Of a stretch of DNA of 64,000 nucleotides, positions 54,806-57,735 are shown piece after piece. Position numbers and translations under genes: made by a program. Origin of the DNA: a virus. Taxonomy: Duplodnaviria; Caudoviricetes. How positions within the stretch are numbered: position 1 is the first letter of the stretch; every line of letters starts with the position of its first letter. The stretch is from positions 96,001 through 160,000 of the IMG/VR virus record IMGVR_UViG_3300021979_000004; one strand, given 5' to 3'. The notes beneath the pieces are model-generated. The model saw nothing but the letters and a program-made list of their open reading frames with translations. It did not search any database and was not told the origin of the DNA.

Positions 54806-55573
54806 ATGAGACTAGAACAACTTTTCGAAGATATACATTCAGACCAAGGAAAATTATCAAGTGCTAAAAAGGCATTTGATGATCTTATGTTTGAAATTAA
54901 AGGACATGTAGAGCTACTTGGTCTTGATGAATTTGATACCTTCGAAAAGTCGTACCTTGAAATAATGTCTAAGCTTTATACGTACACCTTTAAGTTAAAG
55001 TACAAAGATGAACCCATAACCGTTCGTATCCTTCCACAAACCAACTTAGATCGTAATAGGCTTGGTGTGTTAAACACAACAAGTATTGATGATGGAAGTG
55101 GCGTAAAATATCAGTATCAAATTACTATCTTTGTAAATCCTCATGACGATTTTGATTTGATTAGTGCAACAGATTTTTACAGAACGTTTGCTAAGAGTTA
55201 CCAGAAAGTTTTTATTCATGAGTTTGTACATTTTATCGACGCGGTTGAAAGTGACAACCAAGATAATTATACGCAAACAAAAAGAAAGCTTAGACAGAAA
55301 GGCAAGTACATCAATACCCCACAGGAGTACAATGCATTTTACATTCAGATGATGAGTGAAATAGATGATGCATTCGAAGACTCTGCCGTTATGAATATAT
55401 TCAAACAAGACCCCTCATTTGATAAGTTTCTATCCCTCATAAACGTCGAAACACATGCAGGAGAAATGCTAAAGGATTTGGAAGGGAAGTATAAAAAGGC
55501 GTTTAAGAAGAGGTTATATCAATTATACAACCACTACTTGGAAAGAATAAAAGATCAAGCCAACGAAAAGTAA
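54806..55573 (+). CDS. zincin-like metallopeptidase, candidate head-internal protein
   Basis: MRLEQLFE leader; HEFVH...YINTPQE. Confidence 0.7.
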   Translation: MRLEQLFEDIHSDQGKLSSAKKAFDDLMFEIKGHVELLGLDEFDTFEKSYLEIMSKLYTYTFKLKYKDEPITVRILPQTNLDRNRLGVLNTTSIDDGSGVKYQYQITIFVNPHDDFDLISATDFYRTFAKSYQKVFIHEFVHFIDAVESDNQDNYTQTKRKLRQKGKYINTPQEYNAFYIQMMSEIDDAFEDSAVMNIFKQDPSFDKFLSLINVETHAGEMLKDLEGKYKKAFKKRLYQLYNHYLERIKDQANEK

Positions 55574-56004
55574 TCTCTTCTATCGGCGTGATTATTTAAC
55601 TTATTTAAAAGCTTTGTTAAGTTCCCTTTTAACTTAAAAGTGTTCTTGCTCTTACTATCTTCGAAGAAGAGTTTAACATCAAACCCCTTACAAACAAAAG
55701 AATAGCCAACATGTTCTTCTCTCTCTTCCCAATCTCTGTTGAAGAAAGTTTCAATTTCCTCATCTACATCTAGATATGATTCAGAGCAAACTACTTGGAT
55801 ATCAAGTACAGAATCAAAAATTTCAGAATTATACAATATGTTTTTGATACGGTTTTTAATTATCAGGCTTAGAGAATTTATAGAAGTGATTTTCGCACGT
55901 TCAGTTTTTCCATCTTTCATTCGCCTAGATGATGAGCGTATGCCACTTTTTGATAGTAATGTGAATTCAAGAGTTTCCATTATAAAATTCTTCCAACTTT
56001 TCAA
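55555..56004 (-). CDS. hypothetical protein
   Basis: 149-aa ORF downstream of cheW. Confidence 0.6.
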   Translation of the reverse strand: MKSWKNFIMETLEFTLLSKSGIRSSSRRMKDGKTERAKITSINSLSLIIKNRIKNILYNSEIFDSVLDIQVVCSESYLDVDEEIETFFNRDWEEREEHVGYSFVCKGFDVKLFFEDSKSKNTFKLKGNLTKLLNKLNNHADRRDYFSLA

Positions 56005-56386
56005 TCGAAATGTTATTGTATAAAACCTTTTCGTGATTGATTATATAATCAATAAAATCAGAACCTTTCCCTAATACTTGCTTAGTATCAAGGATTTCAT
56101 TACCTTCAACGTCAATTATTTCGCGAACACTATCTACTGTTAGACCTATATAACCACCATCGCTCATTTCTAATATGATGATGTGACTAGGCATGTCGCC
56201 TATGACATTGAACATCTTCTTTGAGTCGAGGATAGTTATTACCGTGTCTCGTAGGTCAATCATCCCTTCTACACATGTGTTGCTTGAAAAGAATCTTGAA
56301 GGTTCTCGGTATTTTATTATTTCCTTTATCTTTAATACAGGTAATGTGAAATCCATATCACATACTTTAAATGAAAAATATTGCAT
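55967..56386 (-). CDS. cheW: CheW-like chemotaxis coupling protein
   Basis: QYFSF..DFTLPVLKIKEII, VEGMIDLRDTVITILD, IIILE..YIGLTVDSVREII, FIDYII. Confidence 0.88.
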   Translation of the reverse strand: MQYFSFKVCDMDFTLPVLKIKEIIKYREPSRFFSSNTCVEGMIDLRDTVITILDSKKMFNVIGDMPSHIIILEMSDGGYIGLTVDSVREIIDVEGNEILDTKQVLGKGSDFIDYIINHEKVLYNNISIEKLEEFYNGNS

Positions 56387-56387
56387 T

Positions 56388-56828
56388 TTATCTTTCCAGT
56401 TTTATAATTTTATAACAATCTCTAGTACCTTTATTTACTCGATTATAGTCTTCTAGAAAACGATCATACGAGTCTTTAATAATAAAAATTCTAGGATCAA
56501 TATCTTTGCTATATCTAAGCTCAACCACAAACTTTGAGCTTTCAATCTCTCCGCAACCTATAGGGAACCTTCGCCAGTCGAAGGGACTTTTCTGAACTTC
56601 ATCCAGCTTTCTACAGATTTCTAGGTTATCTTTATCCAAGCATTCATCGGTAACCTTAACCGTAAAATTATCAGGCTTGAAGTGCTTCTTTACATGTGGG
56701 TTCACACGGTTAAGCATAAACACAGACAAAGAGCTTTTCGCTTCTTTAGATGTCAAATTCTTATGTCTATAGGTTGATGCATGGATTCGCTTGTCGATCT
56801 GAACCATGAATTGAACTACCGTTGGCAT
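56388..56828 (-). CDS. hypothetical protein
   Basis: 146-aa ORF with RBS GGAG. Confidence 0.7.
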   Translation of the reverse strand: MPTVVQFMVQIDKRIHASTYRHKNLTSKEAKSSLSVFMLNRVNPHVKKHFKPDNFTVKVTDECLDKDNLEICRKLDEVQKSPFDWRRFPIGCGEIESSKFVVELRYSKDIDPRIFIIKDSYDRFLEDYNRVNKGTRDCYKIIKLER

Positions 56829-56928
56829 AATACTCTCCTAATTTATGATAGTCTACCATTCAGTCACCTACTGATCAACAGTTTAATATTCTAATGCTAT
56901 GTGTTATAATGCAGAAAAAGAGGTAGTT

Positions 56929-57735
56929 ATGAATATTCAAATTGAAGATGAAAACATACTGAACGTTCTAAACGAGAGTGTCATTGATCGCTTTGAGTTC
57001 GGATCGAAAATATATGGACTTGAGACTGAAAAGTCTGATGCTGATGACATTGCTGTGATCAAACAAAACGATTTCTTTGCCAATACCTTTCTATGGGAAC
57101 ATCATACTATTCAAAGGGCTAGTGAAGAACGTGACACCATCTATACTACCTTGCAGTTGTTGGTAAGGAACCTTATGACTGGTGACTCCACAGCATACTT
57201 TGAAACGCTTCATAGCAATCAGTGTGACGGTACTATACTTGAATTCCTAGCTGACAGGAAATCATGGTTTTATAACTTCACTACCATTCGATCTTTTGTT
57301 GGGTATGCACGTCGAGATATCAAGCACTCTAAGGATAATGGTAAGCGTTTTGCACATGCGGTACGTTGTTACTATGCCGCCAAGATGTTGTTTGATGATC
57401 ATTTTTATACCAATGACTATCGTGAGTATGATACTAACGTGTATGAATACATCCGTTCAATGAAATTGGGTACACATGGTCTAAGTAAGTATGAACTGTC
57501 TCAAGAGATTCAGTATTATAAAAAATCTATTGATGACTTGAGGAAACAGGTTAGTGAGAGCTTTAATAGTAATCAACGGAAGTATGACCGTTATATGTCG
57601 GCTGAGCGTCTTAGAGAGATAGATGCTTATGTTATAGACAAAAACAAGACATTGTGGTATGATTTGGAAGATGAAGAGAATTTTTACATTTATCAAATGT
57701 ACCACGCACTAGAAAACGGTATTGAATATGGATAA
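56929..57735 (+). CDS. second Pol-beta-type nucleotidyltransferase
   Basis: FGSKIYG..SDADD; SFVGYARRD; KRFAHAVR. Confidence 0.75.
   Translation: MNIQIEDENILNVLNESVIDRFEFGSKIYGLETEKSDADDIAVIKQNDFFANTFLWEHHTIQRASEERDTIYTTLQLLVRNLMTGDSTAYFETLHSNQCDGTILEFLADRKSWFYNFTTIRSFVGYARRDIKHSKDNGKRFAHAVRCYYAAKMLFDDHFYTNDYREYDTNVYEYIRSMKLGTHGLSKYELSQEIQYYKKSIDDLRKQVSESFNSNQRKYDRYMSAERLREIDAYVIDKNKTLWYDLEDEENFYIYQMYHALENGIEYG

Follow-up and report, generated by a model that had tools for sequence, protein, structure and literature searches.

What use would a virus have for CheW, the protein that couples chemoreceptors to the kinase CheA in chemotaxis signalling, the best-understood sensory pathway of bacteria? 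The question is raised by a CheW-like gene in a 64,000-nt stretch of viral DNA (the window), which corresponds to bases 96001–160000 of a 217,982-bp IMG/VR record with an estimated completeness of 73%. A first-pass annotation of the window had described the gene as a full-length, apparently intact ORF with a ribosome-binding site, placed in an operon between phage hypothetical genes, whose GxxxLRG motif reads GMIDLRD. The gene and its surroundings are organised as follows:

56929–57735, plus strand: RlaP-like nucleotidyltransferase gene, divergent from the CheW operon (phrog_388, E 2.7e-13)
56850–56878, minus strand: sigma-70-type promoter of the three-gene operon, with -35 TTGATC (56878–56873), a 17-nt spacer and an extended -10 TG-n-TAGACT (56858–56850)
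56388–56828, minus strand: gene for a 146-aa protein of no known family, upstream of CheW and co-transcribed with it (an AGGAGAG ribosome-binding site precedes the ORF)
55967–56386, minus strand: gene for a 139-aa CheW-like protein, one CheW domain in which both beta-barrel subdomains are present (Pfam, AlphaFold2, Foldseek, dN/dS)
55555–55980, minus strand: downstream gene, 141 aa, no known family (gene calls in relatives)
54806–55573, plus strand: gene for a 255-aa HExxH protein, convergent on the CheW operon (TATAAATA late element 22 nt upstream of the ATG)

Both sequence matches and predicted structure indicate that the product of 55967–56386 is a complete stand-alone CheW and not a fragment. 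The ORF begins with ATG and encodes 139 aa, of which residues 2–118 match the Pfam CheW family PF01584 at 67.4 bits (E 1.3e-18; cut-off 23.5 bits), and the sequence also matches the solved CheWs of Thermoanaerobacter and Escherichia coli. The AlphaFold2 (AF2) model, built from an input alignment of 35 sequences, has a mean pLDDT of 88.7 and a pTM of 0.84 and comprises two intertwined five-stranded beta-barrel subdomains and a C-terminal helix. Foldseek aligned this model with the CheWs of E. coli (6S1K_C) and Thermotoga (2CH4_Y) at TM scores of 0.84–0.87 and an rmsd of 1.8–2.6 Å across 139 columns, whereas CheA P5 chains matched it more weakly (E 1e-7 to 3e-5). A profile of the phage clade described below recovers only CheW chains from the PDB at E ≤ 1e-3 (positions 4–135), and all members of that clade score 49–87 bits against PF01584. 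The intactness claimed at first pass is borne out by this Pfam match, far above the cut-off in the HMM search that had been proposed as a check, together with the full-length predicted fold, a dN/dS of 0.12, synteny and a homologue in the cultured phage SCTP-2 (gp489); the motif reading also holds, as G41-M-I-D-L-R46-D47.

The phage protein has the PF01584 family and fold in common with CheV and with the P5 domain of CheA, and both identities were considered and ruled out. CheV is rejected because the protein is 139 aa long and has no receiver domain (nor is there a Response_reg domain in the record), and a piece of CheA because it has none of the P1–P4 domains and a stand-alone single-domain architecture. 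Like bacterial CheWs (E. coli 2HO9/6S1K/8C5V; T. maritima 1K0S/2CH4), which are single domains of about 140–165 aa, it consists of two SH3-like barrels, but it is encoded by a virus, lies outside any che operon and has no N-terminal tail, and the phage clade carries an L-Y-N motif in the last strand. The window protein scores 25.4 bits against the enterobacterial CheW equivalog NCBIfam NF007903, far from the 260-bit cut-off of that model.

The carrier of the gene is an uncultured marine jumbo myophage of about 400 kb. Other products of the window are tail-tube-like proteins, an ATP-dependent DNA ligase and a contractile tail sheath that scores 889 bits against phrog_10581. This sheath has 54.5% identity with its counterpart in Salicola phage SCTP-2 (440 kb) and 32–40% with those of the PA5oct, Phosso and Rak2-like jumbo phages. 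The identical CheW protein is encoded by six independently sampled contigs (a seventh was also read); one is a 401,220-bp Tara Oceans scaffold, and an 80%-identical orthologue is found on contigs of up to 458 kb. Gene order around CheW is the same on the contigs whose flanks were read. Host contamination, a concern raised at first pass, is therefore excluded by the phage flanks, by the recurrence of the same protein on independent ocean assemblies of up to 401 kb and by the conserved gene order. The arrangement of nucleotidyltransferase, CheW and HExxH genes is maintained down to 34% CheW identity: on contig L030 a 45%-identical nucleotidyltransferase homologue is divergent from CheW, as is also the case on L008, and a 35%-identical homologue of the 255-aa protein is convergent on it.

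The gene is an orphan. A domain search of the whole 217,982-bp record found no MCPsignal, Response_reg or HATPase_c domain, which extends to the entire record the first-pass observation that the window has no cheA, cheY or MCP gene; the window CheW is thus encoded without any of these three chemosensory partners. Similarly, the complete SCTP-2 genome has exactly one CheW and no MCP or receiver domain above cut-off. A survey of related jumbo phages, as had been suggested at first pass, located CheW in SCTP-2 and found none in PA5oct, Phosso, A4, GAP32 or XaC1. Jumbo coliphage A4 (Escherichia phage A4) encodes an MCP signalling domain instead (131.6 bits, ON286972.1 51970–52431). A4 is a related jumbo myophage (its tail sheath is 33% identical), and its MCP resembles the window CheW in being a chemosensory-array part without accompanying che genes. 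The A4 protein differs in being a receptor and not an adaptor; A4 has no CheW, and the SCTP-2-like phages have no MCP.

An exhaustive HMMER search of 1.84 billion representatives at E ≤ 0.001 returned 2,428 CheW-domain proteins, and the one match below 1e-30 was a fragment belonging to the phage clade. Cellular CheW domains in this search are about 23–31% identical to the window CheW, which is about 25–36% identical to the cellular CheWs that we sampled and 18–26% identical to solved CheWs. The highest scoring cellular matches (e.g., P0012, P0013, and P0016) are proteins of 500–650 aa with three or four tandem CheW domains. All closer single-domain matches are in phage-like contexts. They include CheWs 54% identical to that of the window on two IMG/VR contigs; P0014, adjoining a T4-type RNA ligase gene on the short contig L026; P0035 (L028:3258–3680), on a 64-kb contig with ClpP and TnpB genes; and P0106, flanked by homologues of the window nucleotidyltransferase (45%), of the 255-aa HExxH protein (35%) and of the window's 183-aa protein (66%). 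Searches of the phage collection with the window CheW by blastn and tblastn gave no match at E ≤ 1e-3, and it was with P0106 and P0014 as queries that SCTP-2 gp489 was found, a 139-aa CheW scoring 64.9 bits against Pfam CheW and 26% identical to the window protein. The only viral structure in BFVD that matches the model is a 139-aa protein at 26% identity, the same length and identity as gp489.

The nine phage-context CheWs range from 100% down to 26% identity among themselves, and they form one group (UFboot 93, SH-aLRT 87, 92% of bootstrap trees) in a maximum-likelihood tree of 43 sequences, the cellular part of which is a biased sample of top metagenomic matches and Bacillota and Myxococcota MAGs with no Gammaproteobacteria. 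The phylogeny proposed at first pass thus gathers the phage sequences apart from the cellular CheWs sampled. Against its 80%-identical orthologue, the window CheW has a dN/dS of about 0.12, an approximate ratio given a near-saturated dS of about 1, which indicates purifying selection; neighbouring genes compared with the same orthologous region give 0.02–0.10. The monophyly of the phage group, its depth to 26% identity and the dN/dS ratio show CheW to be an old, vertically inherited and constrained part of a lineage of SCTP-2-like jumbo myophages from the ocean and salterns, and not a recent pick-up. Gp489 (ASV44504.1) resembles the window CheW in being a 139-aa orphan CheW of a jumbo myophage, here of 440 kb, in belonging to the same tree group and in having a sigma-70-type promoter. 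It differs in lacking the clade histidine described below, in reading YFRQ where the window protein reads DLRD, in its neighbouring genes and in the setting of its phage, whose host is a hypersaline Salicola as opposed to the oceanic setting of the window phage.

CheW is the middle of three tightly coupled genes on the minus strand. The upstream 146-aa gene has a strong ribosome-binding site (AGGAGAG), and its TAA stop lies one base before the CheW ATG, which is itself preceded only by a weak GGAAAG; translation of CheW is therefore probably coupled to that of the 146-aa gene. The operon described at first pass, with its neighbours of no known family, thus stands, and its CheW ribosome-binding site is reduced to this weak element. 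The most likely start of the 141-aa gene is the ATG at 55980, giving a 14-nt overlap with the end of CheW, and the same gene calls are seen in relatives. Neither flanking protein has a match in Pfam, PHROG or PADLOC or a detected paralogue elsewhere in the record, and a protein atlas gave low-confidence leads only. One of five AF2 models of the 141-aa protein reached a pLDDT of 82.8, and fold searches with it gave only generic ferredoxin-like or SEA-like matches; its predicted fold is probably ferredoxin-like alpha/beta. The two proteins have in common a weak N-terminal motif, E/K-A-K ... S-L-S ... N-R (BLASTP E 0.03), and their genes may be distant paralogues of each other.

The 146-aa gene, which has a dN/dS of 0.03, is confined to the closest marine relatives among CheW-bearing phages, being absent from L008, L030, and SCTP-2. 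The 141-aa gene has a 29%-identical counterpart following CheW in L008 and is absent from L030 and SCTP-2. Comparison of the relatives indicates that both flanking genes are younger additions than CheW.

In four marine relatives the -35 TTGA and the extended -10 TG-n-TAGA(C/A)T of the operon promoter are conserved while the sequence of the 17-nt spacer varies freely, which is the footprint expected of a sigma-70-type promoter. More distant members have such promoters directly upstream of CheW itself, namely TTTAGA-17-TGgTATAAT in L008, TTGTAT-17-TATAAT in L030, and TTGATA-16-TATAAT in SCTP-2. The phage has T4-like TATAAATA elements, mostly 15–36 nt before the start codons of late genes, structural ones among them; the tail sheath and 255-aa genes are examples. 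No well-placed element of this kind is found upstream of the CheW operon. The candidate CATAAATT upstream of the operon was rejected as its main (late) promoter, being imperfect, overlapping the ribosome-binding site and lying 11 nt from the ATG as against mostly 15–36 nt elsewhere. From the sigma-70-type promoter and the placement of the late motif, and by analogy with T4-like phages, we infer that the CheW operon is transcribed by the host RNA polymerase early or in the middle of infection. The probably early operon abuts the late gene for the 255-aa protein, the N-terminus of which is MRLEQLFE. A boxA-like TGTTCTTTAACA occurs once in the 217,982-bp record.

To the extent that function can be read from residues, the phage CheWs retain a core and depart from it at defined places. 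The clade was aligned to E. coli CheW (from NC_000913.3), the interface residues of which have been mapped experimentally and compiled (PMC13098124). Common to phage and cellular CheWs are F22, Y29, E38, I39, G57, R62, and G99 (E. coli numbering), and the receptor-groove positions V36, V88, V105, and V108 are still hydrophobic in the phage clade. E38, R62, G57, and G99 correspond to E22, R46, G41, and G81 of the window protein and are invariant or present in eight of the nine phage sequences. E38 and R62 have been linked as a salt bridge in the literature, and the loss of both in P0035, which has R and N instead, is consistent with the two residues working as a pair.

The canonical N-L-R-G-x-x-x-P segment is not kept. 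N60, G63, and P67, found in 32, 30, and 31, respectively, of the 34 cellular CheWs sampled, are replaced in the phage clade by D or Y, by D or E and by T. A proline at the E. coli A49 position, near-invariant in cellular CheWs, is phenylalanine in the marine clade, and the near-invariant Arg/Lys at the V87 position is histidine in eight of nine phage sequences. Residues conserved specifically in the clade are Y26, H68, E97, and a Y123–N124 pair in the last strand. The alignment thus indicates a CheW with an intact core and some remodelled canonical positions, and the replacements at N60, G63, P67, the A49-position proline and the V87-position Arg/Lys could reflect a loss of the canonical partners altogether.

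Phage and cellular CheWs resemble each other more at receptor-contact positions than at randomly chosen ones (P = 0.003), but normalising each position by its cellular conservation leaves no interface with selective retention or loss (P about 0.4–0.9). On the strength of the normalised test, we dropped the proposition that the receptor interface is kept and the CheA interface lost. We also discarded a charge reversal from R117 to D at interface 2, which vanished in a second alignment and concerns a residue that is not conserved among cellular CheWs either. The divergent CheW-family protein FrzB of Myxococcus xanthus, a modulator of array formation and not a core coupler, offers a comparison. 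FrzB is without the CheA-interacting region, whereas the window CheW has no gap relative to E. coli CheW residues 44–67, only substitutions, and is accordingly not a FrzB-type CheW with the CheA-contact strands deleted. FrzB is moreover chromosomal and lies inside its own che operon.

In chemosensory arrays, CheW joins the tips of receptors to the P5 domain of CheA and assembles into rings (PMC13098124). According to PMC4718596, which cites earlier work, high levels of CheW block the assembly of trimers of dimers and of polar clusters and abolish swarming. Jamming or reprogramming of host chemotaxis by the phage CheW is therefore plausible, fitting both these published over-expression effects and the sigma-70-type, probably early, promoter. 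We predict that the phage CheW would be made by the host RNA polymerase early or in the middle of infection and would dock on host chemoreceptor tips, on CheA P5 or on both via the conserved surfaces (the E38–R62, G57, and G99 equivalents and the hydrophobic groove). Arrays depend on CheW stoichiometry, so the most likely effect of a foreign CheW, its N60/G63/P67 segment altered and bearing a histidine peculiar to the clade, would be to uncouple or disorganise them. As a result, chemotactic control of the flagella, or of another output such as type IV pili, would be switched off or biased, and the phage might gain from a cell that is arrested or kept in a favourable place, or from a block on an envelope-linked response. 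The gains suggested at first pass, namely steering of hosts, saving of energy and a block on flagellotropic phages, are likewise conjectural.

We rate the chances that the phage protein docks on host arrays and disturbs them as about even. The fuller proposal, in which a CheW subfamily peculiar to viruses serves early in host takeover by inserting into or capping the arrays, so that the swimming of infected cells is stopped or redirected, is put forward tentatively and with somewhat less than even confidence. In favour of docking and disturbance we also count the MCP of A4, which places another component of the signalling machinery in a second phage of the wider group.

The CheW fold might alternatively have been re-used outside chemotaxis as a small module that binds RecA, some other protein of the host or the products of the two co-transcribed genes (141 and 146 aa). 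The changes at several canonical positions and the clade-specific conservation of Y26, H68, E97, and Y123–N124 would suit such a role, as would the lack of any other che gene near this orphan CheW and, in the marine clade, its translational coupling to two proteins of no known family. These operon partners, however, are not conserved with CheW, being absent from L030, L028, and SCTP-2, and therefore cannot be what it generally binds. Receptor-contact residues are also among the positions at which phage and cellular CheWs agree best. RecA aside, we know of no CheW-domain protein that functions elsewhere than in chemosensory arrays. An interaction of RecA with CheW has been documented for the Salmonella protein (PMC4718596), and we regard re-use of the fold as unlikely on balance, though deserving of some weight.

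The retained features could instead be those of a working CheW, supplied by the phage so that chemotaxis is kept up or boosted and the infected cell continues to find nutrients, or hosts not yet infected, even with its own protein synthesis shut off. Such a protein would be expected to have the full-length fold, the conserved coupling residues E38, R62, G57, and G99 with the hydrophobic groove, the undeleted region that is missing in CheA-blind FrzB and the purifying selection that we observe. CheW is nevertheless structural, stable and stoichiometric, and when auxiliary genes stand in for host proteins they usually remain near the host versions. An identity of about 25–30% to cellular CheWs, with N60, G63, and P67 replaced, is unlike a drop-in replacement, and extra CheW inhibits rather than helps, according to the work cited in PMC4718596. 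We consider maintenance of chemotaxis improbable.

That the gene is a neutral passenger, or an artefact of assembly or host contamination, might be suspected from its small size, its orphan state without partner che genes and the perhaps bacterial origin of some other CheW matches on short unannotated contigs of the phage collection, but is effectively refuted and merits next to no credence given the identical protein on six independent-sample contigs (one of 401 kb), synteny down to 34% identity, the gene's presence in the complete genome of a cultured phage, the dN/dS of 0.12 and the single phage group.

Returning to disturbance of host arrays as the preferred explanation, the comparative evidence suggests that the SCTP-2-like phage lineage probably tampers with the sensing and swimming of the cells it infects. 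That ocean and saltern phages have retained CheW for so long implies a gain from controlling host navigation or array integrity during infection. If the host-takeover proposal is correct, the phage CheW would be the first example of viral manipulation of bacterial chemotaxis signalling by means of a copy of the array's own scaffold and, taken with the A4 MCP, would mean that jumbo phages target the chemosensory array repeatedly. In the ocean, infected cells whose swimming is altered by phages could meet particles, nutrients and other cells differently. The idea is directly testable since SCTP-2 and its Salicola host are in culture, and a naturally diverged CheW that is predicted to fold correctly would be a useful probe of the surfaces needed for array assembly.

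The phage CheW is a new, virus-borne variant of a known family. Our literature searches found no paper on a phage CheW or on a virus carrying a core part of chemotaxis signalling, in agreement with the first-pass annotation, which knew of no characterised phage CheW, and a survey of 224 jumbo phage genomes that names SCTP-2 mentions neither CheW nor chemotaxis. Gp489 is annotated in GenBank as a "hypothetical protein," and one clade member has already been labelled "chemotaxis signal transduction protein" automatically by pipelines.

Several records encountered in these searches carry features of their own. CheW-like matches occur on short unannotated records named "Listeria phage" (4–6 kb) and human-faecal "Bacteriophage sp." (7–21 kb) (collection hits H27–H30, H33, H34, H37, and H43), which may be bacterial DNA mislabelled as phage. 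On the 64-kb phage-like contig, a TnpB/IS605 OrfB-type gene (Cas12f-like; L028:768–1841) lies about 1.4 kb from CheW. The contig of P0014 carries a ribosomal protein L7/L12-like gene (PF00542; L026:3023–3481) adjoining the T4-type RNA ligase 1 gene (L026:2110–3018), and this looks like a phage-borne ribosomal protein.
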